The notes beneath the pieces are model-generated. The model did no database searches, was not told the DNA's origin, and saw nothing but the letters and a program-made list of their open reading frames with translations. The translations under genes were made by a program, and so were the position numbers. Positions 6,607-64,000 of a stretch of DNA of 64,000 nucleotides are shown piece after piece; position 1 is the first letter of the stretch; the number at the start of each line of letters is the position of its first letter. Source of the DNA: an uncultured Acidimicrobiia bacterium (GTDB taxonomy: Bacteria > Actinomycetota > Acidimicrobiia > Acidimicrobiales > AC-14); contig CAWIIV010000017.1 of NCBI GenBank assembly GCA_963836205.1, positions 32,001 to 96,000 on the forward strand, written 5' to 3'.

Positions 6607-8199
6607 ATGAAACCCACCGCACGTATCCCCAGCGTCGCCGTCCTCGTCCTGAGTTGCCTGGCGTTCGCCACCAGCCTCATCGTGGCGACGGCACCGGCGG
6701 CCTCGGCGCTGAGCACGGTGACCCTGCGGGTCGTGATCGAACGGGTCGACGAGCAGGGCTGCACCGACAACCTCAGCGGCTCCGACTTCTACGGCCAGAT
6801 CGACATCGAGGGCCAGGCCTTCGACTTCGGCCGGATCGACGGCGAGGACACGATCACGCCCAACTGGACGGCGGAGAAGGTGCTCGACGCCAACACGGTG
6901 TCGTCCGCCACGGTCGTCATCCGGGTCGCCGACTACGACACCTTCCTGAAGTTCGGCGACGACGTCTGCGACATCAGCCGCAACGACGGCACCGATCTCG
7001 ACCTGGAGATCCCCCTGTTCCCGTGCTCGGTCACCGGGGACGCCACCGGCAGCTGCGCCACCTCCATCGACACCGGCGGCAGCGGTGGCGGCCAGGGCGA
7101 CGTCGACTTGCGGTTCCGGGTCGAGGTCGACCTGCCGGCGTCCACCCCGGGGCTCACCGTGCGGTGCACCCACGCCCCGCTGTGGCCCCAACCAGGCGAC
7201 AACGTCACCATCACCGTCGAGTCGTTCGACGGCTCGGTGCAGGTCGGAGACACCCAGGCGGACACCTCGAGTGGGGCCGCGCCGCCCCTCGTCGACCACA
7301 CCAAGATCGCCGATCACGTCGAGATCTGGGTGGGCGACCGGACGGGTCCCGACGTCGACCTCACCAACAAGACCACGGCCACCTTCGTGGTCAACAACGT
7401 CGCCGCCGGTGACCTCCTCTACAGCTGCCGGGTGCAGGACGACGGCGACACCGTCTTCACCGGCTGGCGGCGAACCCGGGTGGGTGCTCCCGCCGAGGGC
7501 AACGCGGTGCCGGTCATGTTCCTCGGAGAGCGGGCCAACCGGGCCGACATCGTCTTCATCCCCGACATGGACAGCTACACCGGGGCGACCGACCCCACCT
7601 TCCTCAGCGATGCCGCCGATGTGATCAAGGGTGCCTACTACGGCCAGGACTACTTCCTCACCAACCAGCAGAACATCAACTTCTGGCTGGCCGACCAGAC
7701 CGGTGACGCCGACCGGGTGGCGGCGCCCACGCCGGCCGATCCGAGCAACACCAACTGCGTGCTCACCCTCCCCGGCAACTGGGGCGACTACAGCTGGCGG
7801 GACAGCGGTGCCATCCTGCACCGCGACACGTTCCGGGACTGCGCCAACAGCGGTGTCTTCTCGACGGAGCCGACATCGCTCGGCACCGTGTTGCACGAGT
7901 CGGGTCACTCCCCGTTCGGGCTGGCCGACGAGTACTGCTGCGACGGCGGCTACTTCGAGAACGGTCCGAACCCGAACATGTTCGACTCGATGGCCGAGTG
8001 CCAGGCCGACGCGCCGGGGCTCGGGCGGATGGCTTCCGCCTGCCGCACCGTCACCGACCCCGGGCCACCGTCGGTCAGCTGGTTCCTCTCCGAACCCACC
8101 CCGAACGACCTCATGAACAGCGACCGCCGACCACCACAGGCGGCCGACATTCGACGAATGAACTGGTTCATGGACAACTGCCGGGCCGGAAAGTGCTGA
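6607..8199 (+). CDS. Secreted zinc metallopeptidase (M64-like) with an N-terminal C2-like domain
   Basis: Signal peptide; TVLHESGHSPFGLADEY zinc motif; RBS GAGGAG; many Cys residues. Confidence 0.75.
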   Translation: MKPTARIPSVAVLVLSCLAFATSLIVATAPAASALSTVTLRVVIERVDEQGCTDNLSGSDFYGQIDIEGQAFDFGRIDGEDTITPNWTAEKVLDANTVSSATVVIRVADYDTFLKFGDDVCDISRNDGTDLDLEIPLFPCSVTGDATGSCATSIDTGGSGGGQGDVDLRFRVEVDLPASTPGLTVRCTHAPLWPQPGDNVTITVESFDGSVQVGDTQADTSSGAAPPLVDHTKIADHVEIWVGDRTGPDVDLTNKTTATFVVNNVAAGDLLYSCRVQDDGDTVFTGWRRTRVGAPAEGNAVPVMFLGERANRADIVFIPDMDSYTGATDPTFLSDAADVIKGAYYGQDYFLTNQQNINFWLADQTGDADRVAAPTPADPSNTNCVLTLPGNWGDYSWRDSGAILHRDTFRDCANSGVFSTEPTSLGTVLHESGHSPFGLADEYCCDGGYFENGPNPNMFDSMAECQADAPGLGRMASACRTVTDPGPPSVSWFLSEPTPNDLMNSDRRPPQAADIRRMNWFMDNCRAGKC

Positions 8200-8212
8200 G
8201 GGAGATCACACG

Positions 8213-9505
8213 ATGAAACTTCGACACACCTTCGCCGTGGTCGGCGCCCTCGCCGCCACCCTCGCAGTCGCCTCGTTGCCGACCTCGGCCACGATCGTCG
8301 ACGACACCAACCCGGCCACCGCGCCGCAGCCCGAGTACGACTACGCCGACACCTCCAAGTCATTCCTCGTCGACCTCCAGTTCGGAGACAGCTCGGCGAC
8401 GCTGGTGCAGGCCGCAGTCGGCAACGAGCGCTCCTACTCCCATCTGGGTGACCCCCCGTTGCTCCGGGTGTCGCTCACCGACGAGGACGGTGCCGCCGCC
8501 GGTTCGTTCAACGCCTGGGACCCGCGCTGGGTCCTCGACGAGGTCCCCGGCGGTGGCGAGCGGTTGGTCGTCCGCCCCGGAGCGGGCCAGATCACGACCG
8601 CCTTCGACGGTGACGTGGCGACGATGCTCGTCCACGACCAGGTGGCCGGCACCGACCTGGCCACCGTCGACCTGCGCCCGACCGTTCGGGAGTTCTGCAC
8701 CGACCATCCTGACGACCCCGAGTGCGTCGAGGCCGACCTCGTGGTCACCTCGACCACGGCGACGGGTGACCCGCTCGGCGTCGTGGGCCAAGCCGTGCCC
8801 GTGACGGTTGCGGCGACAGTTGCCAACCTCGGACCCGATGGGCCCGTCGACGGCGACGTGACGCAGACGGCGGTCGCCTCCGCCGGCGCCACCGTCACCC
8901 CCGGGAGTCAGGCCATCGACGCCGACGGGCTGGCGGTGGGCAGCCCGGTGACCCTGAGCAGGCAGTACTCGGTCACCTGCGACACGCCGGGGGCCAAGAC
9001 GGTGGAGGTGACGACGTCGATCGTGCCGGAGAAGGCCAAGGTCGTCGATCTCGTCGCCGCCAACAACAGCCGGTCGGCGAGCTTCTCCGTCGACTGTGCG
9101 GTGCCGGTGACGTTGAACGTGAAGCCGGGCAGCCTGCGCAACCCGGTGAACATGAACAACGGCGCCATCCCGATGGCCGTCCTCACCACGCAGGCGGGCG
9201 AGTACGGCAACCCACTGGCCTTCGACGCCTCCGCCATCCAGGCGTCGACGGTGCGGGTCGGTTCCCGGACCGATCTCGTGGCCACGAACACCGGAGCCCC
9301 CGAGACGCACGGCAAGGTCCACCTCGAGAAGTCCCTCGAGCTCGACGAGACGACGAAGGATGGCGATCTGGACGCGGTGCTCCACGCCCGGTCGTCGGAG
9401 ATCCCGGTGGTGTCGACCACCACCGAGCTCTGCGTGCGGGGCCGCTTCGGCCCCGGCTCGGGCACCACGTTCTTCGGCTGCGACCACGTGGAGGTCGTCC
9501 CCTAA
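8213..9505 (+). CDS. Secreted beta-rich protein (CARDB/DUF11-like Ig domain plus C-terminal domain)
   Basis: Signal peptide; ADLVVT...VANLGP...DLVAANNS Ig pattern; begins 13 bp after the peptidase gene. Confidence 0.7.
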   Translation: MKLRHTFAVVGALAATLAVASLPTSATIVDDTNPATAPQPEYDYADTSKSFLVDLQFGDSSATLVQAAVGNERSYSHLGDPPLLRVSLTDEDGAAAGSFNAWDPRWVLDEVPGGGERLVVRPGAGQITTAFDGDVATMLVHDQVAGTDLATVDLRPTVREFCTDHPDDPECVEADLVVTSTTATGDPLGVVGQAVPVTVAATVANLGPDGPVDGDVTQTAVASAGATVTPGSQAIDADGLAVGSPVTLSRQYSVTCDTPGAKTVEVTTSIVPEKAKVVDLVAANNSRSASFSVDCAVPVTLNVKPGSLRNPVNMNNGAIPMAVLTTQAGEYGNPLAFDASAIQASTVRVGSRTDLVATNTGAPETHGKVHLEKSLELDETTKDGDLDAVLHARSSEIPVVSTTTELCVRGRFGPGSGTTFFGCDHVEVVP

Positions 9506-9675: not shown

Positions 9676-9888
9676 TCAGCGGGCACTCGCGTGATGGAGC
9701 CACCGCATCGTCCAGTCGTGACGGAACGCGGCGTGCAGCTCCGCCTGCGAGAACGCACACCCAAGCTGGCTGGCGAGCTCGATCAGCTGGCTGAGTGACG
9801 GCGCCGGCCCCCACGACTCGATCTGCTCCTGGACGTCTGGGCGCCGGCGCACCAGATGAAAGAAGTCGAGGGCGTCTTGGATCGGCAT
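9676..9888 (-). CDS. Nif11-leader-like small protein (70 aa)
   Basis: MPIQDALDFFHLVRRRPDVQEQI...LIELASQLGCAFSQAEL matches the Nif11 leader pattern. It is the tail of ORF 9676..10914 and starts 8 bp after the cyclase stop. Confidence 0.75.
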   Translation of the reverse strand: MPIQDALDFFHLVRRRPDVQEQIESWGPAPSLSQLIELASQLGCAFSQAELHAAFRHDWTMRWLHHASAR

Positions 9889-9896
9889 CCCTCGCG

Positions 9897-11932
9897 TCAC
9901 CGCCTCACACGGGCACTGGTGGCGAGTGCAGCCGCTACCGCCGCGGTCGTGAACACGCGGTTCTGGTCGAGCGCGTCGATCGTCCGCTCCTGTCCGGCCC
10001 CGACAAGCTGTCCGGGCATGGGCACGCGAAGGCGCGCCGAGGCAGGCCAGCTTCCGTCCACGTGTTGCGCGCCCAAGAGCCACCGCACCGCCCGCGCCTC
10101 GTCCGCCCCGAACGTTGTCTCGTGCCCCAGGATTCGCAGGCACCACGCGGTCGCCCACGCCGACGGTTCTCCGTCGACGCTGTGGACCGCGCCCGATGCG
10201 GTGAGCCGGGTCCGCGCCCAACCGGCGGCAGTGGCGCGCGAGGCGGGCAGCACGTCGGCAGCGAGTGCGGTCGTGTACTCGTCGTCCCACCACCAGTAGC
10301 TCTGCCAGTTGCCGGCGTCGCCCTGCTGGCGGCCCAGGTAGTCGACGGTCACCGGGCCGAGGAGCGGCGCCGCGGCGGCGGTCACGCAGTCGTGCGTCGC
10401 CTGCCAGCCCGCGAACGACGCGTCCTCCGGCAGGCGCGTGAAGCGCCGAATGGCGTCTCGCTCGGCGTAGGTCGTGATACCGCCCTCGGCCGAGACGTGC
10501 CCGGCGAGAAAGGCGTAGGCCGCAGCGACACGTCCGTGATCGAGGACACGAAGGCCGCCGGCCAGCCGCAGGGCCCACGCGGTGCTGTCGGCGTCGGCGG
10601 GCGTCAGCCGGTTGTAGCCCCAGCCCGGCTCGTCGGGGCGCCGGCGGAGCAGCGCCTCCCACGCCCGTCGGGCCGCTCGGCAGGTCTTCTCGCCCGGCGC
10701 CTCCAGCAGGCAGGCGCCCACGAACGCGGTCACCCACTCGTCGCTCGGACCGGCCGGCAGGAGGAAATCGGACCAGCGCCCCGTGTGCGCCTGCCGGGAG
10801 AGCAGGAAGTCGATCGCACCGGATAGCGCCTGGGCGACCGGGCGCTCCGAGCTCCCCGAAACGGCCGCGTGAGCCCCCGGGCGAGGCGTCCGCCAGACAT
10901 GCCCCGCACCCCAATACCCCTTGGCGACAGCCTGCTGCCCGGCGACCGTGAGCTTGACGTGGGACAACTGGCGCTCGGTCGTGGAGAAGTGATCAGCGGG
11001 GGCGGCGAGTGTCGCCGCGATCCACGCCGCCGGCCACTCCCCGGGCGCTTCGGGCGGGGTCAGCACACCAGGCACGTCAAGCAACGCTGCCGCATTGGCG
11101 GCCGTGCAGAGCCCCTCAGCCGTGAGTTCTTCGAGGAGCTCGCGCCAGCGGGGCTCTTGCGGCGGCTGGATGGCGAGCACACATTCCAGGCCGAGGTGCG
11201 GGTAGACGACGGGGCCGACGTCGAGGCAGACGGTGACCCGGTCGACGCGGTCGTACGCCCACCCGGCCCAGTGCTCGACGGCCCCCAGCGGGCCGTTCCA
11301 GCCGACCGCCTCCAGGAACGGGGCGAGCTCGTCGAGCCGTAGCCGCTTGACGTTCACCCGCACGGCTTCGGTCGTGCGGCCCAGCATGGCGCCGAGAAAG
11401 CTCACCGAGGCGCCCGTGGGGCACGCGGCAAAGCAGCCCGCCAGGCTGTCGGCCAGAGCTGGCGGCCACGGCGCAGGCAGCAGGAGCGCGAGGGCGGCCT
11501 CCGCCACTGCTTCACCGTCGGCCTCGGGGACGGAGAGGAAGACCGATGGGGTCAAGGCGGGCTGAGGGGCGGGGTCGAGGTCGTGCTCCAGGAAGACCTC
11601 GGCGATCCCGCGGTGCACCAACGTCGTGGGGTCGGCCCAGGCCGCGCTGAAGCGGTGGAGCCGCGCCCACGCGCCATCACCCACCCTCGCCGCCGGCTGG
11701 GTCGCGAGCAGAAAGTCACGGAGCAGCGCGGGCTCTCCGTCGTCACGCCGAATGCACTGCTGAAGCTCGATCGTGGGCGCGGGGTCGGCCAACCGGCACT
11801 CCAGGGCGACCCGTGGGATGGGCGCCAAGCGCCGGGTCAGGTCGGCCAGGTTGCGTCGATTGACGGGCGTGTCCCAGGCTGCCGGGAGGGCAGGCAGAGT
11901 GTGGGCCAGTAGTCCGCCAGCGCCGCGGTCAA
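9897..11932 (-). CDS. Two-domain protein: putative prenyltransferase (N-terminal) fused to a class II terpene cyclase/squalene-hopene-cyclase-like domain (C-terminal)
   Basis: C-half has QW-type repeats (FLLSRQAHTGRW, YLGRQQGDAGNW, WLLGAQHVDGSW) and GWGYN..TPADADSTA (DxDD-like). The N-half assignment is inference. The start is either ATG 11966 or TTG 11932 with a 1-nt deletion near 11908. Confidence 0.75.
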
Positions 11933-12948
11933 CCTCGCAGCCGCCCCATCTCGGCCAGCATCGCATCGCAGATGCGGGGGAGGGCCGCCAAGCTGTCGGG
12001 TCGTTCCACCGTGCGGACCGGCGTCACGCCCACCAGGTCGGCCAGGGTCGACAAGCGCTGGGCGTCGATCGTGGGGACGAGCCAGGCCGGAGTGAGGAGC
12101 TGGGCGACCACGTGCGGCACGGCTGCCGCTGGGGAAAGGGCCGTGACCCGGGGCTCCTGCAGCAGTTCGGCGCGCGGGGGCAGCAGGAAGATGCCTGCCA
12201 AGGGGATCGGCGCGGCGCCGGCGGAGTGATCCGCGCCCTCGGCGAAGGAGACGACTCCCTTGTCCTCGAGTCGCTCGTAGTCCACCCCGGGGAGCTCGGG
12301 CGAGCGCGGCCAAAGCGGCGTCGCGACCACCTCGGGGATCCCGAGCGCCTCCCGGGCCTGAGGCATCAGCCGGATGGCAGGTATGCCGGGGAAGATGACC
12401 CAGCCGCGGGCCTCCCGGGCGAGGACGGCCACGTCGTCGCTGATCGCGGCGCAGCCCCGCTGGATCAGCGCGGTGACGGTCGTGGATTTGCCCGCTCCCT
12501 GCACGCCCGCAACGACGAAGGCGGCGCCCCGCCACCCGATGACACCGGCATGGAGCGCAAGACGTCCGAGCCGGGACAGCAGGTAGCCCATCACGGTGCT
12601 GAGCAGGAGGGTGGAGACATGAACTGGCGGGATCTCCTGCGTCCAGGTGACGACGACACGTGTCCCGGCGGGTTCGACGTCGAACTGGACGTGATGGCGG
12701 CCGTACCCGAAGCGGAGTCGGGTCCAGCCCTCCGTATACCCAGGAGCAGCTGAAACCGTCAACCACCCGCCGGTCTCCTCGACGATCGTGCGCGACCCGG
12801 GCGCCGTCGGGTCTCCTTCGGCAGCGACTCCGGCCCAGTCGACGACCACGTCCGGTGACCCCGTGCGCACCGCGCGGAGGCCCGACGAATGAAGGGGGAC
12901 GTTGCACTCCAGCGTCAACCCGTAGACCGCGTAGCGGTACGGGCCCAA
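11929..12948 (-). CDS. HPr-kinase-like lasso peptide kinase
   Basis: LHAGVI, P-loop GVQGAGKST and ISDDV; N-terminal YRYAVYGL; directly downstream of the precursor. Confidence 0.88.
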   Translation of the reverse strand: MGPYRYAVYGLTLECNVPLHSSGLRAVRTGSPDVVVDWAGVAAEGDPTAPGSRTIVEETGGWLTVSAAPGYTEGWTRLRFGYGRHHVQFDVEPAGTRVVVTWTQEIPPVHVSTLLLSTVMGYLLSRLGRLALHAGVIGWRGAAFVVAGVQGAGKSTTVTALIQRGCAAISDDVAVLAREARGWVIFPGIPAIRLMPQAREALGIPEVVATPLWPRSPELPGVDYERLEDKGVVSFAEGADHSAGAAPIPLAGIFLLPPRAELLQEPRVTALSPAAAVPHVVAQLLTPAWLVPTIDAQRLSTLADLVGVTPVRTVERPDSLAALPRICDAMLAEMGRLRG

Positions 12949-13128
12949 CTACGAAGCGTAGATGTCGGCGCCGCCGCCGCCGTCGAAGTTCGGCCCTGCC
13001 GCGTTGGTCAGGGTCAGATCGCGCACGCTGCCGTAGGACCGCACCGTCGGTGGCTGGTAACGCTTCCTCGTGGGAATCTCGGCGTCGCCGTGGGCGCCGT
13101 CCGTTGATTCATCGGCCGAATGCGGCAT
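12949..13128 (-). CDS. Lasso peptide precursor (59 aa)
   Basis: Hand translation: MPHSADESTDGAHGDAEIPTRKRYQPPTVRSYGSVRDLTLTNAAGPNFDGGGGADIYAS*. Leader motif YxxPxVxxxGxxxxxT, RBS GGAGG, C-terminal Ser. Confidence 0.92.
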   Translation of the reverse strand: MPHSADESTDGAHGDAEIPTRKRYQPPTVRSYGSVRDLTLTNAAGPNFDGGGGADIYAS

Positions 13129-13171
13129 TCACGCCTCCAGGTGCGAGCGATCCGCCGACGGCCAAATGATG

Positions 13172-14953
13172 CTACTTCGCGCCGGCGCTGCGGTGCCAGC
13201 AGCGCCGGTGGCGCAGCCAGTACGCGAGTTCGACGGGTGGACGCTGCTTCGCCCAGATCTCTGCTTGCACAACCGCGGACGCACGTTGCACGGCGCCAAG
13301 CCAGCGCGAGTCGACGTGGCCGGCCATCTCCGGCGCGGCCAGAAGGTCGATCTGCCAGCCGGGCACGCCCGACTGCCTCTGCTGTTCGAGGGTCACGTTT
13401 CCGGGCATCACGGTCTTGGGTCGCGTGCGTACGCCCTCCGGCAAGCGCTCGCCCATGGCGACGCGCAGCAGGCGCTTGTCTTCGAGCCATGGCACCGGCG
13501 GGATGGCCAGCACGAACTCGAGTAGGCGCAGGTCGAAGAAGGGGAAGCGGATCGAGAGGGGGCGACCGTTGTAGCCGGCGTCCGACCACGCGAAGAGCGC
13601 TCTCCAGAGCGGCGCACCGGCCATGCCGGCCTGCTCGCGCCGGGACATTTGCCGGAGGAGAGTGGCGCGGTCGGCCAGGTCCAGGTCGCGGGCCCACTGC
13701 CCGTTGACCCAGGCCGGGAGTGGGTCGGGCTGACGCAGTCGCCGCCGCTCTCGACCGCTGTCGGCCAACCGGCGCAGGGGCCATTTCCAGGAACCGTGGC
13801 GCAGCGCGGCCCGGACGCGGGGCCACGACAGCTCAGGCGGCGCGAGGAGTGGGTCGCCGCCGTACCCCGTCAGCAGCACCGGGGCGAAGGCTGCGGTGCG
13901 CCGGCAGACCTCCTCCATAACCCACAGCGTGGCGGCTCCGGGTTCCGGCGGCACCCAGGCGGGCTCGGCTGGGGGCTCGGCGCGCAGGTACGTCTCGCCG
14001 TTGAGCAGCTCGACGGGAAAGCCCGAATGAGCGGCCACCTGCGCCGCCAAACGGCCTTCTTGGTCGTGGATCAGCGTGGGGTACTCGATGGAGAACGCCC
14101 GCAGGTCGAAGGGCTGACCGTTCGCCTTGAGTCGACGGTGGGCGGTCACAGCGATGCTCGACGAGTCCATCCCCCCGCTCAGCTGGCTCCCGGCGCGTTG
14201 GGTGCGCAGGCGGTCCCCCACCGCCTGGTCGAAGAGCAGCCGGAAGTGCTCGGCGTACTCCTCCGGCCTGCGGTACCGGAGGGGGCGAGCAGGCCGGGGC
14301 AACCTCCAGTAACGGTCGACGCGCAGCCCACCTCTGTCGCAGGTGAGCTTGTGGCCTGCGGGCACGCGCCGAATGGCCGAGTACCCGGTGGCCGCGTCGT
14401 CGAGCGTCACCTGGAACAGGGCGACCTCGGCCAGAGTCTGTTCGTCGAGGGTGTCGGGGACACGGGGATGGAGCAGCAGGCTGTGCAGGGTGTTGCCGAC
14501 GAGCAGGGTGCCGCCGGGTTGCGAGTAGAAGAGTTGGGCCACGCCGAGCTGATCCCGTGCCGCCAGGAGGCGCTCCTGGCGCCCGTCCCACAAGACGAAG
14601 GCAAAGTCACCGATCAGGTGGTCCAGGCACTCGTCGCCCCACACGAGGTAGGCGTGCAGGATCAACTCGACATCGGTTGCGCCCGCCGAGACATCGCAGC
14701 TCCGTTCGCGCAAACGCTGGACGAGGGAGGCACGCCCGTCGATGCGGGCATCGGCTGTGATCCACACACCACCGCCGAGGCTGCACGGCTGGCATTCCTG
14801 TTCGGACTCGACGCTGGTGCGGAAGAGCGTGTGGCCGAGCCCCACGTGATCGTCCGCCCAGACGTTCCGGGCATCCGGGCCACGAAAGGCCATAGCGGCC
14901 GTCATTCCGGTGAGCAGTGCAACGTCGAGGGGGGCGCCGTCGGAGTTGAGCAT
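13172..14953 (-). CDS. Lasso peptide cyclase (asparagine synthetase-like, C protein)
   Basis: RGPD, ITADARID, GDFAF, ARDQLG, LSGGMDSSS, LLTGYGGD, RFPFFDLRL and RPK motifs. No N-terminal Cys; flanked by the RRE and precursor genes. Confidence 0.92.
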   Translation of the reverse strand: MLNSDGAPLDVALLTGMTAAMAFRGPDARNVWADDHVGLGHTLFRTSVESEQECQPCSLGGGVWITADARIDGRASLVQRLRERSCDVSAGATDVELILHAYLVWGDECLDHLIGDFAFVLWDGRQERLLAARDQLGVAQLFYSQPGGTLLVGNTLHSLLLHPRVPDTLDEQTLAEVALFQVTLDDAATGYSAIRRVPAGHKLTCDRGGLRVDRYWRLPRPARPLRYRRPEEYAEHFRLLFDQAVGDRLRTQRAGSQLSGGMDSSSIAVTAHRRLKANGQPFDLRAFSIEYPTLIHDQEGRLAAQVAAHSGFPVELLNGETYLRAEPPAEPAWVPPEPGAATLWVMEEVCRRTAAFAPVLLTGYGGDPLLAPPELSWPRVRAALRHGSWKWPLRRLADSGRERRRLRQPDPLPAWVNGQWARDLDLADRATLLRQMSRREQAGMAGAPLWRALFAWSDAGYNGRPLSIRFPFFDLRLLEFVLAIPPVPWLEDKRLLRVAMGERLPEGVRTRPKTVMPGNVTLEQQRQSGVPGWQIDLLAAPEMAGHVDSRWLGAVQRASAVVQAEIWAKQRPPVELAYWLRHRRCWHRSAGAK

Positions 14954-14970
14954 GCCGACGATCCTCCCCT

Positions 14971-15038
14971 CCCGCTCATCCGCTAGGCCCGCTCATCCGC
15001 TAGGCCCGCTCATCCGCGAGGCCCGCTCATCGGCTAGG
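14971..15038. repeat. 17-bp tandem repeat x4 at the RRE/cyclase junction
   Basis: CCCGCTCATCCGCTAGG x2, CCCGCTCATCCGCGAGG, CCCGCTCATCGGCTAGG. Confidence 0.95.
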
Positions 15039-15312
15039 TCCGTTCGACGTGGATCAACCCGAGATCGGCGAGTTCATCGAGCATCCGTTCGAGGTCGCGG
15101 CGCAGCGTCGTCTCCTCGACCTCGTACTCGCTCAGCAGAGCCGCCACGATGGGATCGAGGGTCCGGTGCTCCCGCAGCAGTTGCCAGACGCGACTTCCGA
15201 CTTCGTCCAAGCCGTAGTAGCGCTCGGTGCCCAGGTGAAGGAGGACGGTCTCCTCCCCGAGCTGTTGGTGAAGAACGGCGTTGGGGACCGTGATCTGCTC
15301 GGGAAGACTCAC
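15034..15312 (-). CDS. PqqD-family RiPP recognition element (lasso B1)
   Basis: ETVLL...YYGLDEVGSRVWQLL...EYEV...DL...L...GLI; 92 aa; GTGA overlap with the upstream gene. Confidence 0.95.
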   Translation of the reverse strand: MSLPEQITVPNAVLHQQLGEETVLLHLGTERYYGLDEVGSRVWQLLREHRTLDPIVAALLSEYEVEETTLRRDLERMLDELADLGLIHVERT

Positions 15313-16703
15313 GAAAACGTACCTAGCACCGTGAAACGTTCGAGGTTCTCTCCTCCCGCCACCACGACGTCGCCGCTGTGAAGCCAGGCGTGAGCCTCCA
15401 GCTGCGTCTCCCCGTCCTTGGCGACGCCCAGAGAGAGGGTGCTGGCAATCCCCCGGCGTCGCAGCATGTATTTGCCCGCGAGCGCCTCAGCCAGGCAATG
15501 GCCGCGCCAGGGCACGCGCCGGCGCATCCTCTCCAGCGCCCACGCGACGCGCTCCCGGTCGGCGAGCGTCGCGGCGTCGTTCTGACTGGGGGTCTCACCG
15601 ACCCGTTGGCGGAGGGCGCGGGTAAGCCAACGAAAGGGCAGGGCGGCAACACCCAGTCGCGCCACCGCCAGGCACACAGCTGTGTCGAGGAGCAGCAAGC
15701 GGTTGCTGCCGGCCACCCGTCGGGCCACGACGAACCGAGCTGCGGGGCCGATCGACGTGGCCAACCCCCGCCAGTAGACGGCGTAGCCGGCGACGAGGGA
15801 CGGCGTCTGGGCTGACACGTAGCGAACCTTGGCCGGGGATGGGATGAGGGTCCACCGCACGATCCGGACCTTGTCACGGATGGTGGGGGCCGTGCGCAGG
15901 CGGGAGAGTGACATCACCCCTCGAGGCGCCCACGGGCGTTTGCGGTGGTAGGCAGAGTCGGCAAATGCCATGTGAGGAAGGCCGAGGCGGCCGGCGAGAT
16001 CCACACCCTCGGGGAGCCGGCGGAGGCTCAACCCGACGACGCCGGCTATCCCGAGCCGCTCCGCCAGCTGGACCACCTCTTGCCATCCTTCGAGTGGCAG
16101 CGCATCGAGGGCGCGGCGGAGGTCCTCCGCAGTGTGAAGGGTGAACCCGTGCTGCATCGCATGCACGACGATGTGGAGCGCAATGCCGATGCGGTCGAGG
16201 ACCCGCACCTCGACGCCGCCCACCAGCATCGCTTCACACCGGGCGTCGAACGCATCCCACAAGAGGCTGTCCGGAACGTTCAGGTCCGGGATGTTGCGAT
16301 GGAGGTCGACCTTGCCGCCTGGACGCGCCCCCGAGTCCGGAGCACGGGTGAAAGGGCTCTCGACGGCCTGGGTGCTTCGCTCCCAGGGGTGGAAGTCCTC
16401 GAGCAGCTCGGTGAATCCGAGCGACCGAAGCACCGAGCCCGCGTTGACGAACTGCGACGGCGGGACCAGGAGGTCGGTGTCGCGGTACAGGCGACCCCCC
16501 GCCGGGTAGAGCCAGCGTGCGATCGACGGGCCTTTGAGGAGGATCGCGGGGATGCCGGCATCGTCGAAGGCGGCGATGACCTCGCCAGTCACGCGATCGA
16601 CGTAGAGGGCGCAGGCGGCGTGCAGCGCCGTCTGGTCGGGCCTCGCGTCCGCGACGGCGCCGTCGGATTGCCCCACCAGGGCCGAAGCCCCGCCACGCGC
16701 CAC
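15309..16703 (-). CDS. Nucleotidyltransferase fused to lasso leader peptidase (B2); start uncertain
   Basis: N-terminal ILLKGP...RLYRDTDLLV...VDLH (NTP_transf_5-like). C-terminal CLAEALA...LGV...AHAW transglutaminase-like Cys/His motifs. Single reading frame. Confidence 0.85.
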   Translation of the reverse strand: MARGGASALVGQSDGAVADARPDQTALHAACALYVDRVTGEVIAAFDDAGIPAILLKGPSIARWLYPAGGRLYRDTDLLVPPSQFVNAGSVLRSLGFTELLEDFHPWERSTQAVESPFTRAPDSGARPGGKVDLHRNIPDLNVPDSLLWDAFDARCEAMLVGGVEVRVLDRIGIALHIVVHAMQHGFTLHTAEDLRRALDALPLEGWQEVVQLAERLGIAGVVGLSLRRLPEGVDLAGRLGLPHMAFADSAYHRKRPWAPRGVMSLSRLRTAPTIRDKVRIVRWTLIPSPAKVRYVSAQTPSLVAGYAVYWRGLATSIGPAARFVVARRVAGSNRLLLLDTAVCLAVARLGVAALPFRWLTRALRQRVGETPSQNDAATLADRERVAWALERMRRRVPWRGHCLAEALAGKYMLRRRGIASTLSLGVAKDGETQLEAHAWLHSGDVVVAGGENLERFTVLGTFS

Positions 16704-17095
16704 GCCGAATCGTATCGGCTGACAGGGAGGGCCTGCGAGATTCGCGAACTGCGGTGCGGATCCGTCGGACACCCCGGAGGACACCGCGACGTGAGAGGGC
16801 GGCAACGGTTCCCCGCCACTTGCCTCGGCGAGGTTGCGCTGCCGCCGGCTGGATGTGATGCAACAATCGAGGGGCGGTCGGGGGACCGCATCGCTGAGCA
16901 CACGCGAAAGGAGTGGGCGTCCGTGATTCCCGGCCAACGCTGACGTCACTGAACGACGTGGTGGTTCCGCTGAGGGGGTAGCACGCCGGGGCCGACGAAG
17001 GCAGCGACGGTCAACGCCTCCGCAGCAGAGCGAGGGTCGTGCAGGTTCCGGAGCCGCAGGAGCCGCGTCCGAGGAATGGGCCGGCGGGGCAGTCG

Positions 17096-17176
17096 TTTCA
17101 ATGCATTCCACACGGAGCCGCAACGCCCTGACCAGCACTCTCGCGCTGAACAGGGGGGTGCCCGGGGTGGGATTCG
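17096..17176. repeat. Degenerate direct repeat of the tRNA-Leu 3' end and its downstream flank (att-like)
   Basis: TTTCAATGCATT.CACACGGAGC.GCAACGCCCTGACCAGCACT.TCGCGC...GGGGGTGCCCGGGGTGGGATTCG matches about 18646-18725. Confidence 0.9.
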
Positions 17177-17569: not shown

Positions 17570-18130
17570 TCACAGCGTGGCCGGGCGAAGGGCGGCGACG
17601 GACTCGTGAAGGCCGACGATCGCGAGCCCGTCGAGCACCTCGGTGGTGGTCATCGGCGGGTTACGCAAGGCGGCAGCCTGCTGTTCGATCACGGCGGCCA
17701 CCGCCTCCAGATCGGCGTGGATCAGTCTGAGGATGAAGTCATCTGGCGATAGAACGGTGATGCTGGGTGGGACGGCAGCCGCTGGGAAGTCACCCAGGTT
17801 CGATGTCACCACGATGTCGGCGCTGGCAACTATGGCGGCGGCGACTACCTGTCGATCGGACGGGTCGGGCAGGTCGAGCTGTTCGATCAGGTGCTCGTAG
17901 TCCCGGACGATCGCATCCGGAACGGCGACGTTCACGAGGCCACGGGTCCGGTCGAGGCGTTCGGCAGGAAGGTCCGGTCGGTCGGCGAGGAGGTTGCTGA
18001 AGCACTCGTCGAGGATCTGCTCGGTCCAGAGCGCCTGGTAGTGGCCTGCGATGGCGAGGCGGAGGAGAAAGTCGCGCACACGGGCGGGGTAGAGCACGTT
18101 GGCGTCCAGCACCGCCACTGGGCGGGCCAC
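17570..18130 (-). CDS. PIN domain protein (PIN_3-like putative toxin)
   Basis: VLDANVLY, ILDE, LPDPSDRQVVAAA, IVVTSNLGDFP. Confidence 0.9.
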   Translation of the reverse strand: MARPVAVLDANVLYPARVRDFLLRLAIAGHYQALWTEQILDECFSNLLADRPDLPAERLDRTRGLVNVAVPDAIVRDYEHLIEQLDLPDPSDRQVVAAAIVASADIVVTSNLGDFPAAAVPPSITVLSPDDFILRLIHADLEAVAAVIEQQAAALRNPPMTTTEVLDGLAIVGLHESVAALRPATL

Positions 18131-18132
18131 GG

Positions 18133-18543
18133 TCAGTACAGGCCCAGGTCCTGCGCTTCGGCGGCCAGGTCGGCGACCGCTTGGAGGCGTCGGGCCTGGT
18201 CGACCTCCCGGTAGAGGAGCACGTCGGCCAGCTTCATACGCCGCCGCGTGCCGACCTTCCGGGACGGGATCTCGCCTCGATCGACGAGGCCAACCACGTA
18301 CGGGCGCGACACGTTGAGCAGGTCCGCTGCCTGCTGGGTGGTGATCTCCTCATCGTCAGCAATAACCCGAACGTGCTCGCCTCGTCGTACGTGATCGAGC
18401 ACATCGGCCAGCACTAACACGGCCGATGCGGGCAGCTCGATGGGCTCACGGTCCGGACCGCTCGGCAGCACCACCACCCGACCACCGCGCAAGGCGACGG
18501 CCGCTGCGGCTGCCTGTTCGGACTCTGACAGGACACTCGGCAT
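18133..18543 (-). CDS. Excisionase-like HTH DNA-binding protein (putative antitoxin)
   Basis: ITTQQAADLLNVSRPYVVGLVDRGEIP..KVGTRRR and a C-terminal EAQDLGLY; typical partner of PIN_3 genes. Confidence 0.88.
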   Translation of the reverse strand: MPSVLSESEQAAAAAVALRGGRVVVLPSGPDREPIELPASAVLVLADVLDHVRRGEHVRVIADDEEITTQQAADLLNVSRPYVVGLVDRGEIPSRKVGTRRRMKLADVLLYREVDQARRLQAVADLAAEAQDLGLY

Positions 18544-18707
18544 CCCGACAGGATACGAAATAAACGAAGCGAACGAAACAAGCGTGAGGATTTCCGTCAC
18601 GAAACAGGCGCATGATTGTGACCAAACTCGTGACCACAACGGTCATTTCAATGCATTTCACACGGAGCGGCAACGCCCTGACCAGCACTTTCGCGCCGCA
18701 CAGGGGG

Positions 18708-18794
18708 TGCCCGGGGTGGGATTCGAACCCACACGGCCCATGCGGGCCAAAGGGGTTTAAGCCCTTCGCGTCTGACCAGTTCCGCCACCCGGGC
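18708..18794 (-). tRNA. tRNA-Leu (anticodon TAA)
   Basis: GCCCGGG acceptor stem, anticodon arm AAGGG-CTTAAAC-CCCTT, long variable arm, GGTTCGAATCC T-arm; CCA not encoded. Confidence 0.95.
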
Positions 18795-63335: not shown

Positions 63336-64000
63336 ATGGCCGAGATCGACCTGGTCGGCGTCACCAAGCGGTTCCCCGACGGCACCACCGCCGTCAAGGA
63401 CGTCACCTTCACCATCCACGACGGCGAGTTCTTCATCCTGGTGGGGCCGTCGGGGTGCGGGAAGTCGACCCTGCTCAACATGATCGTGGGCCTGGAGGAG
63501 ATCAGCGACGGCGAGCTCAAGGTCGACGGGACGGTCGTCAACGACGTCGACCCCAAGGACCGCAACATGGCCATGGTGTTCCAGAGCTACGCCCTCTATC
63601 CGCACATGACCGTCCGGGAGAACATCTCCTTTCCCCTGCGGCTGGCCAAGATGTCCGACGCCGAGATCGACAAGCGGGTGGACGAGGCGGCCCGCATCCT
63701 CCAGCTGGGCGAGCTGCTCGACCGCAAGCCGGCCAACCTGTCCGGGGGCCAGCGGCAGCGGGTGGCCATGGGCCGGGCCATCGTGCGGGAGCCGGCCGCG
63801 TTCCTCATGGACGAGCCCCTGTCCAACCTCGACGCCAAGTTGCGGGTGCAGACACGCACCGAGATCGCCCGCCTCCAGAACCGGCTCAAGACCACCACCG
63901 TCTACGTCACCCACGACCAGACCGAGGCCATGACCCTCGGCGACCGGATCGCGTTGATGCGGCGGGGCGTGGTGCAGCAGCTGGGGACGCCCCGCGAGCT
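63336..64000 (+). CDS. Sugar ABC transporter ATP-binding protein (SugC-like; runs off the window)
   Basis: Hand translation: [38 protein letters not shown]. Confidence 0.95.

Follow-up and report, generated by a model that had tools for sequence, protein, structure and literature searches.

Fused prenyltransferase-cyclase (PC) enzymes are recent among the maturases of peptides that are made on the ribosome and modified after translation (RiPPs): their peptide-terpene hybrids were first reported in 2024, and the two characterised enzymes, NctPC and ChrPC (both from Hubrich et al., Chem 2024), are Trp-directed according to the available text of PMC13290415. NctPC is an ABBA prenyltransferase fused to an MstE-like cyclase and puts geranylgeranyl on Trp before cyclising it, whilst the prenyltransferase (P) domain of ChrPC has a different fold (PMC13290415, same text). 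Lasso kinases, which need a His-Lys-Asp-Asp motif, phosphorylate the C-terminal Ser of the linear precursor, sometimes several times, and in pseudomycoidin a nucleotidyltransferase homologue puts a hexose on that phosphate (accessible part of PMC9266682); bulky C-terminal groups may help a lasso peptide to stay threaded (PMC6993621, likewise in part). MppC, a prenyltransferase of a lanthipeptide pathway, uses Trp336 and Phe340 to bind a Nif11-like leader at its structured nucleus, and the leader has to be present in cis (excerpted text of PMC12715784). Here we describe an operon in which a lasso peptide cluster, a kinase, a PC fusion and a Nif11-like protein occur together, at positions 9676 to approximately 16703 of a 64,000-nucleotide stretch from an uncultured Acidimicrobiia bacterium (assembly GCA_963836205.1, contig CAWIIV010000017.1, positions 32,001 to 96,000), hereafter denoted the window. 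On balance we consider it probable that the operon makes a phosphorylated lasso peptide which receives a cyclised polyprenyl group, most likely on a conserved Tyr. A first reading of the letters of this stretch (the original prediction) had interpreted the product as a candidate terpenylated, phosphorylated lasso peptide, and this interpretation is supported by the analysis that follows.

Gene content of the cluster

Open reading frame (ORF) calls and profile searches of the window, which has a G+C content of approximately 70%, locate seven co-oriented genes on the minus strand, all of them present in the predicted order as judged by ORF calls, Pfam and NCBIfam. They are given here in the direction of transcription, with the two domains of the PC protein listed after it.

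15309-16703, minus strand: NTP_transf_5 nucleotidyltransferase fused to lasso leader peptidase B2 (transglutaminase-like); PF14907 E 1.3e-23, PF13471 E 7.8e-27, NF033537 lasso_biosyn_B2 E 9.6e-29, above its cut-off
15034-15312, minus strand: PqqD-type RiPP recognition element (RRE; lasso B1); PF05402 E 4.1e-21, with lasso PqqD NCBIfam models matched below their cut-offs
13172-14953, minus strand: lasso macrolactam synthetase (C) of asparagine-synthase type; PF00733 E 1e-26, GATase_7 and GATase_6, NF033535 E 3e-81, below its cut-off
12949-13128, minus strand: lasso precursor of 59 residues; NF033521 lasso_leader_L3 at 22.4 bits against a cut-off of 19
11929-12948, minus strand: HprK-related kinase; weak matches to PF07475 (E 8e-4) and TIGR04352 (E 3.7e-8), both below cut-off
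9897-11966, minus strand: PC fusion of 689 residues, by modelled structure and MstE homology
10881-11891, minus strand: P domain of the PC protein (residues 26-362), a predicted ABBA-fold prenyltransferase barrel, by AlphaFold2 model and Foldseek
9897-10850, minus strand: cyclase (C) domain of the PC protein, MstE-like class II terpene cyclase by phmmer, family profile and Foldseek
9676-9888, minus strand: Nif11-domain protein of 70 residues without a recognisable core; PF07862 at 23.7 bits against a cut-off of 23.8

The genes are tightly packed. There is a 4-nt overlap between the RRE and the B2 stop, no gap separates the kinase TTG (12948) from the stop of the precursor (12949), and 38 nt of the 689-residue ORF lie within the end of the kinase; the latter two junctions had both been noted in the original prediction. 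The frame of the nucleotidyltransferase-B2 gene is open over 15309-17138, and since its 92% identity to the homologue of the closest relative (locus L001) begins at ORF residue 138, we place its start at a GTG near 16703, the position proposed previously. The Nif11-like gene starts at the ATG at 9888 rather than at 9885.

With C, B1, B2 and precursor genes all recognisable by these matches, we assign the cluster as a lasso peptide biosynthetic gene cluster of the split-B type. When the window kinase is compared with 55 homologues, conservation is at least 96% at H133, in the P-loop (G151-x-G-K154-S-T) and at D171-D172, and H133, K154, D171 and D172 of the window kinase agree with the His-Lys-Asp-Asp motif of lasso kinases (PMC9266682, in the part available). 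By analogy, the window kinase is expected to phosphorylate the C-terminal Ser of the precursor; the pairing of an H-K-D-D kinase with a C-terminal Ser places the cluster, at the level of sequence, with the phosphorylated lasso peptides of paeninodin type.

The precursor ends in Tyr-Ala-Ser. Its predicted core comprises 19 residues (precursor 41-59), with a Thr1-Asp9 ring and a Tyr17-Ala-Ser19 end; as a lasso it would have a mass of 1735.74 Da. The cleavage site is placed here because Thr39, at position -2, is the only Thr kept in the relative at locus L003; Thr39 and the Asp at core position 9 were read from the sequence and from aligned relatives.

The prenyltransferase-cyclase protein

The 689-residue protein is a PC fusion, as the original prediction had guessed: its N-terminal domain has the ABBA fold by Foldseek and its C-terminal domain is homologous to MstE, including the catalytic Asp. 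That fused maturases of this kind already exist in RiPP pathways, another element of that prediction, is borne out by NctPC and ChrPC (PMC13290415, available text). Family models return almost nothing for the full-length protein (TED_complement at 23 bits and squalene cyclase at E 0.07, in Pfam and NCBIfam), a protein atlas offered only leads scoring below 0.9 to prenyltransferase families, and the 62 relatives retrieved from 5.8 billion proteins are mostly unnamed.

AlphaFold2, run with an alignment of 25 sequences, gave a two-domain model with a predicted local distance difference test (pLDDT) score of 87.8. The P domain modelled alone (AlphaFold2, 37 sequences) reached a pLDDT of 94.0, with five alpha-alpha-beta-beta repeats evident in the DSSP pattern. 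All Foldseek matches listed for this domain are ABBA aromatic prenyltransferases, 39 of them at E <= 0.001; the best is 8day (E 2.5e-6), template modelling (TM) scores span 0.40-0.58 and identities 7-17%. DMATS1, 5- and 6-DMATS, MpnD, TleC, NphB/Orf2, AmbP1/3, LimF, PagF, PatF and DciF are included. On this modelling, the P domain is predicted to adopt the ABBA prenyltransferase fold. Its invariant residues (domain numbering) are E31, E102, D104, H311, K313, K324 and Y326, of which the last four, together with the nearly invariant R172 and R178, are located on predicted strands, as candidates for the basic and Tyr residues that line the ten-stranded ABBA barrel for the diphosphate. A profile of the domain, which has no Pfam model match, finds 4226 representative proteins at E <= 0.001 and 1839 at E <= 1e-30; the best 150 of the 4226 comprise both fused (approximately 650-750 residues) and stand-alone (approximately 350-380 residues) forms.

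Two further proteins of approximately 600-640 residues, P0061 and P0062, are fusions of a class I methyltransferase with roughly half of the 689-residue query; residues 28-350 of P0062 match the whole P-domain profile.

The C domain aligns with MstE at E 6e-51 by phmmer and, as a family profile, at E 3.5e-90 over MstE residues 13-363. The best Foldseek matches in the PDB are all entries for MstE of Scytonema (6sbb: E 6e-21, 37% identity, TM to target 0.83). Both features that the original prediction had picked out, the QW repeats and the DADST motif, are present: the domain contains three Q-x3-G-x-W motifs, and D458, D460, S461 and T462 are invariant in 25 sequences. MstE D109, the second Asp of D-A-D-T-T, aligns with D460 of D-A-D-S-T in the window, with the alignment numbering set by the chain of the MstE Y157F variant. 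[quoted passage not shown] An earlier LanC-like or protein-prenyltransferase-beta reading of this domain, suggested by the spacing of Asp, His and Cys, was dropped in view of the E 6e-51 match to MstE and its aligned catalytic Asp.

The start of the PC gene in the window differs from that of its relatives, in which a TTG overlaps the TGA stop of the kinase (TTGA). The equivalent position in the window is 11932. Near 11893 (11890-11932), approximately 13 codons past the TTG, a CCC run that is complete in four Acidimicrobiia relatives is one C short in the window, so that the conserved start is out of frame in the window assembly; the missing C may be a homopolymer assembly error or a real change. 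The full ORF survives from an upstream ATG at 11966 with all invariant residues kept. The N-terminus that results differs from that of the relatives, in a poorly conserved region with pLDDT below 50 for residues 1-14.

Co-occurrence with lasso peptide genes

Searching 185,579 species genomes (one per species) yielded 131 relatives, the best 80 of which were examined as loci using stop-to-stop ORFs and iterated profiles of each window protein, profiles of a kind that can drift. Both the P and C domains are present at 60 loci. The kinase is found at 55 of these, directly upstream of the PC gene and on the same strand at 52, and the lasso cyclase at 51, the RRE at 52, B2 at 28 and the nucleotidyltransferase at 22. 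A Nif11-like gene is present at 53, within 2.5 kb of the PC end at 48. None of the 20 loci with the cyclase domain only has lasso genes. Two-domain loci that lack lasso genes are mostly cut by contig ends; four (L014, L046, L064 and L079) have ample flanks and truly no lasso genes. The original prediction had hinged on the PC and Nif11 pair keeping company with lasso genes in other genomes, and it does so at 51-55 of the 60 loci, across many phyla: Acidimicrobiia and other Actinomycetota, cyanobacteria, Bacteroidota, sphingomonads and other Alphaproteobacteria, Acidobacteriota, Nitrospirota and candidate phyla are represented. Within the lineage of the window itself the PC gene is patchy, occurring in 6 of 41 genomes including its own, all of one family, one of which (G008) is unpublished.

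A 697-residue protein of Tolypothrix tenuis PCC 7101 (L057, 8915-11008) has an MstE-like C domain of 42% identity and an N-terminal half outside the P-domain profile, with no lasso genes nearby; it may be another type of PC fusion.

Precursor peptides and the predicted acceptor

The precursor set comprises 40 sequences, of which 39 are ORFs found by profile and one is that of the window. A C-terminal Ser is present in 39 of the 40. Tyr occurs within the last four residues in 35 and within the last 15 in all 40, the commonest endings being Tyr-Ser and Tyr-x-Ser, and no Trp is found in the last 22 residues of any. Another 11 precursors, from sphingomonad and related loci, have the same kind of ending, but the pattern used to collect them called for a terminal Ser with an aromatic residue close by, and they were kept outside the motif statistics. 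The original prediction had named Phe, Tyr or the phospho-Ser as candidate acceptors; Tyr is favoured by its universal presence, Phe is disfavoured, as only 13 of 51 precursors have one among their last 22 residues, and phospho-Ser is kept as the main rival.

Two cyanobacterial loci are informative here. L006 encodes a peptide (8633-8767) with a lasso-type leader, a core without Asp or Glu and a Tyr-Val-Pro end, and has no cyclase. L014 has a PC gene with neither kinase nor lasso genes; 860 nt upstream lies a gene for a 76-residue peptide (8885-9115) in which a Gly-rich stretch precedes Tyr-Thr-Pro. From these sequences, Tyr thus appears to survive the loss of the terminal Ser, of the kinase or even of the lasso. 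Nothing convincing in the way of precursor-like peptides was found near the PC genes of L046, L064 and L079. Tyr17 is the most likely acceptor in the window because it is the one conserved aromatic residue, because the substrates of MstE are polyprenyl phenols (a polyprenyl hydroxybenzoate, a phenol like Tyr, according to PDB entry titles), and because Tyr persists without kinase or Ser.

An alternative, which we regard as rather unlikely, is that the PC enzyme does modify the lasso peptide, with the phosphate installed by the kinase on the terminal Ser as acceptor, giving a phosphodiester-linked (cyclised) polyprenyl. All listed structural neighbours of the P domain alkylate C, N or O of aromatic, guanidine or imidazole groups, and we know of none that uses phosphate. 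L014 keeps the PC and a peptide with a near-terminal Tyr in the absence of kinase and terminal Ser, the L006 core ends in Pro, and MstE, the closest relative of the C domain, acts on a phenol-linked chain. These observations must be set against the kinase lying directly upstream of the PC gene at 52 of 60 loci, with the TTGA gene overlap in relatives, against the near-universal terminal Ser (39 of 40), and against the drimenyl- and copalyl-diphosphate synthases, class II enzymes among the structural matches, which work on phosphate-linked prenyl chains; phosphate is, moreover, a proven attachment point in pseudomycoidin, where it carries a hexose (PMC9266682 and PMC6993621, in the parts available).

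The proteobacterial precursors of L041, L049, L050, L053, L058 and L060 would have cores of only 13 residues if cut after the conserved Thr-x. Such cores, a nine-residue ring with a four-residue tail ending in Tyr-Ser, seem too short for a self-locking lasso.

The Nif11-like protein

Aligned with its homologues (33 sequences in all), the 70-residue protein belongs to a family in which 21 members match PF07862 (best E 5.5e-12) and 21 match the Nif11-leader precursor model TIGR03798. Only 15-25 residues follow the domain. Neither a Gly-Gly cleavage site, nor a variable core, nor a conserved nucleophile is found in the 33 sequences, and the sole invariant residue is R62. The frequent Trp59 occurs in no sphingomonad member, and some of the others have Phe, Tyr, Cys or Met in its place.

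Complex prediction places this protein on the P domain, with an ipSAE of 0.68 compared to 0.00 for the best of three controls, a partner pLDDT of at least 85 and agreement between runs in at least 88% of contacts. In a benchmark that is rough only, as custom alignments were used, 58 of 80 solved complexes attained the ipSAE mark, compared with 2 of 110 mismatched pairs; the score expresses model confidence and is not a measurement. The predicted interface comprises residues 49, 81, 303-328 and 360-362 of the PC protein, including the invariant P304 and W311, and residues 10-35 and 48-67 of the Nif11-like protein. In the small sample of PC proteins without a Nif11 neighbour (L046 and L064), the Trp-Pro motif is missing at this interface. 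In the predicted complex the Nif11-like protein sits on the P domain in the region of Trp311, and we propose that it is an accessory subunit of that domain, a leader-like module without a core, rather than a second precursor. It is not filed as a precursor because there is no Gly-Gly site and no core, and the Trp is not conserved; a Trp-bearing second precursor was rejected as the principal interpretation on the same grounds.

That the Nif11-like protein is nevertheless the substrate of the PC enzyme, as a second RiPP whose core would be unusually conserved and would carry the prenyl group on Arg62 or Trp59 (the lasso peptide being modified only by the kinase and nucleotidyltransferase), appears to us unlikely. 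Nif11-like precursors are reportedly among the PC substrates predicted in the Hubrich 2024 study. The proposal would also account for the 21 of 33 members that match a precursor model, for the adjacency of the gene to the PC gene at 48 of 60 loci, for the predicted binding to the P domain and for the match in structure between that domain and DciF (9lwv), an arginine bis-prenyltransferase; the known PC enzymes, furthermore, act on Trp (PMC13290415, available text). It sits poorly with the lack of a Gly-Gly type cleavage site and of a variable core, and with the loss of the Trp from every sphingomonad member and its replacement elsewhere. The predicted contacts, moreover, involve a folded helical unit on the surface (10-35, 48-67) and not a tail in the barrel, and the near-constant company that a kinase, a lasso cyclase and a Tyr-x-Ser precursor keep with the PC gene would be left unexplained.

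Proposed pathway

The favoured reading, a phosphorylated lasso peptide prenylated on Tyr17, is set out here as a scheme whose chemical steps, acceptor, chain length and order are proposed from the observed gene content, conserved residues, co-occurrence and precursor motifs and the computed folds and homology. As expected from their families, B1, B2 and C would cut the leader and close the nine-residue Thr1-Asp9 macrolactam. The HprK-like kinase would phosphorylate the terminal Ser19, a step established for its relatives, and the nucleotidyltransferase domain may add a sugar to this phosphate, by analogy with PsmN of pseudomycoidin. The ABBA domain of the PC enzyme would then transfer a farnesyl or geranylgeranyl group (C15/C20) to Tyr17, two residues before the terminal Ser, and the MstE-like domain would cyclise the chain, with Asp460 acting as the acid that protonates the distal double bond. 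The Nif11-like protein would be docked on the P domain, where the phosphorylated C-terminus may be held in part by its invariant Arg62; the phosphate could be a recognition handle, possibly read by this Arg.

A more elaborate version of the scheme, which we put forward tentatively, sees a three-part C-terminal tailoring machine associated with lasso pathways, in which the kinase places a phosphate on Ser, the coreless, trans-acting Nif11 module presents the phosphorylated end via its Arg and the Tyr receives the cyclised polyprenyl.

Several points weigh against prenylation of Tyr17 as outlined. The evidence assembled here consists of sequence comparison and modelling, with 80 of 131 relatives covered. 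The P domain resembles known prenyltransferases in structure only, with 7-17% identity and no Pfam match. In MstE the substrate-anchoring Arg337 lies in a 14-residue insertion opposite a variable segment of the window protein (residues 651-660, pLDDT below 50), and the position of MstE Tyr157 is occupied by Phe. If the one-nucleotide gap in the PC gene is real and the ATG at 11966 is unused, the enzyme would not be made. The motif statistics cannot draw on the 11 extra precursors, since the search pattern itself required a terminal Ser and an aromatic residue. Both characterised PC enzymes act on Trp, which is absent from these cores (0 of 40). The strict adjacency of kinase and PC genes fits phosphate as the acceptor equally well, and the near-terminal Tyr may instead be a recognition feature for the kinase or a B protein. 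Paeninodin, whose pathway has no PC enzyme, presumably ends in Tyr-Asp-Ser, and we know of no precedent for Tyr as the acceptor of a PC enzyme.

It is very unlikely that the PC protein is not a peptide maturase at all, being a small-molecule meroterpenoid enzyme, or inactive through its frameshifted start, and placed with lasso genes by co-regulation or shared function: MstE and most ABBA prenyltransferases do act on small molecules, four two-domain loci with ample flanks (L014, L046, L064 and L079) have no lasso genes, stand-alone P-domain proteins (approximately 350-380 residues) are common among the best 150 of the 4226 representatives and a 1-nt gap follows the conserved start in the window, but the order kinase-PC-Nif11 is kept from Acidimicrobiia through cyanobacteria, Bacteroidota, sphingomonads, Acidobacteriota and Nitrospirota to candidate phyla, no small-molecule pathway genes recur with the PC loci, and the window retains a full ORF with all invariant residues.

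Neighbouring genes

Neighbours of the 55 loci with kinase and PC genes were grouped into families by BLAST clustering, with one representative of each checked by Pfam. The recurrent ones are cytochrome P450 (17 loci), S-adenosylmethionine methyltransferase (11), ABC transporter (9, L003 and L004 among them), JmjC (7) and carbamoyltransferase (7), with examples at L041 636-2021, L053 1-459, L011 12176-14164, L060 389-1573 and L053 1534-3231. Cytochromes P450 commonly tailor terpenes, and their genes at 17 of 55 loci fit a terpenoid that is further oxidised. No polyprenyl-diphosphate synthase recurs among the neighbour families present at five or more loci.

In the window, Pfam finds neither an exporter nor an isopeptidase among the 10 flanking ORFs, in line with the original prediction; those it recognises are a VTT membrane protein, a PIN/HTH pair, a GNAT protein and a PD-(D/E)XK nuclease. 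An ABC exporter is present in the relatives L003 and L004. None stands beside the window cluster, and tblastn with the ABC transporter of a relative matched only 63369-63998.

A 75-nt direct repeat, 87% identical between its copies (17092-17166 and 18642-18716), flanks genes for a PIN-domain and an HTH_17 protein (17570-18639), and its second copy overlaps the 3′ end of a tRNA-Leu(TAA) (18706-18794). The bracketed segment, located just upstream of the lasso operon, has the appearance of a small inserted toxin-antitoxin system. On the plus strand, convergent to the operon, two large ORFs (6607-8199 and 8213-9505) have signal-peptide-like N-termini and no Pfam match; the former contains an H-E-x-x-H-like motif.

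Comparison with known systems

The original prediction had known of no description of a lasso peptide carrying a cyclised isoprenoid. This stands insofar as no product is known; the association with lasso peptides itself was perhaps already predicted, the abstract of Hubrich et al. 2024 being said to foresee cyclic isoprenoid units on proteusin, Nif11-like and lasso peptides. Our literature search, with Hubrich 2024, Harris 2024 and Zhu 2016 outside its reach, found no description of a prenyltransferase or terpene cyclase in a lasso cluster.

Against the two Trp-directed enzymes reported in 2024 (PMC13290415, in part), the window locus represents a widespread lasso branch that spans phyla and has no characterised product, and the comparative data provide hypotheses on the residue modified (Tyr17), the reason for the kinase and the role of the Nif11-like protein. 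Were they and the three-part scheme above correct, this would be the first lasso peptide to bear a terpenoid. Its PC enzyme would be the first to be directed at Tyr, and the Nif11-like protein the first case in which a RiPP leader was orphaned and yet retained as a subunit of an enzyme, an instance of a leader being recycled. A bulky terpenoid might then serve as a steric lock for cores with short tails, such as the putative 13-residue proteobacterial cores with four-residue tails, and cyclised terpenes could be hung on short C-terminal peptide tags.

With MstE, the C domain of the window protein can be aligned over the whole chain, Asp109 corresponding to Asp460. MstE is a stand-alone enzyme that cyclises polyprenyl dihydroxybenzoates, whereas the window domain is part of a fusion, and its segment corresponding to that of Arg337 is shorter and variable.

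The paeninodin and pseudomycoidin clusters share with the window the split B1 and B2 proteins, an H-K-D-D HprK-like kinase and a precursor that ends in Ser, and pseudomycoidin also a nucleotidyltransferase-family domain; as described in the available portions of PMC8498205, PMC9266682 and PMC6993621, they have no prenyltransferase, cyclase or Nif11-like gene. In the window, by contrast, B2 and the nucleotidyltransferase form one fused protein, and the cluster has no exporter beside it.

MppC resembles the window PC protein as a beta-barrel prenyltransferase that engages a Nif11-type module via aromatic residues, Trp311 forming part of the predicted interface in the window. In MppC the module is the leader of the substrate itself and is inactive when supplied in trans (PMC12715784, excerpted text), whereas in the window it is a separate coreless protein of 70 residues.

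The closest likeness in architecture is to NctPC, a fusion of an ABBA-barrel prenyltransferase to an MstE-like cyclase in a RiPP cluster, with whose prenylate-then-cyclise logic the pathway proposed here agrees; the comparison with the NctPC P domain is by description only (PMC13290415, available text). NctPC and ChrPC, as described there, act on Trp of proteusin-type or other precursors, whereas the window family is found with lasso cores that have no Trp (0 of 40) and a Tyr-x(0-2)-Ser end, and, unlike theirs, its PC gene is tied to a kinase and to a coreless Nif11-like protein. As far as we can tell, three things are new: the triad of kinase, PC and Nif11-like genes, the Tyr-x-Ser signature that lacks Trp, and the proposal that the Nif11-like protein is a coreless subunit derived from a leader.

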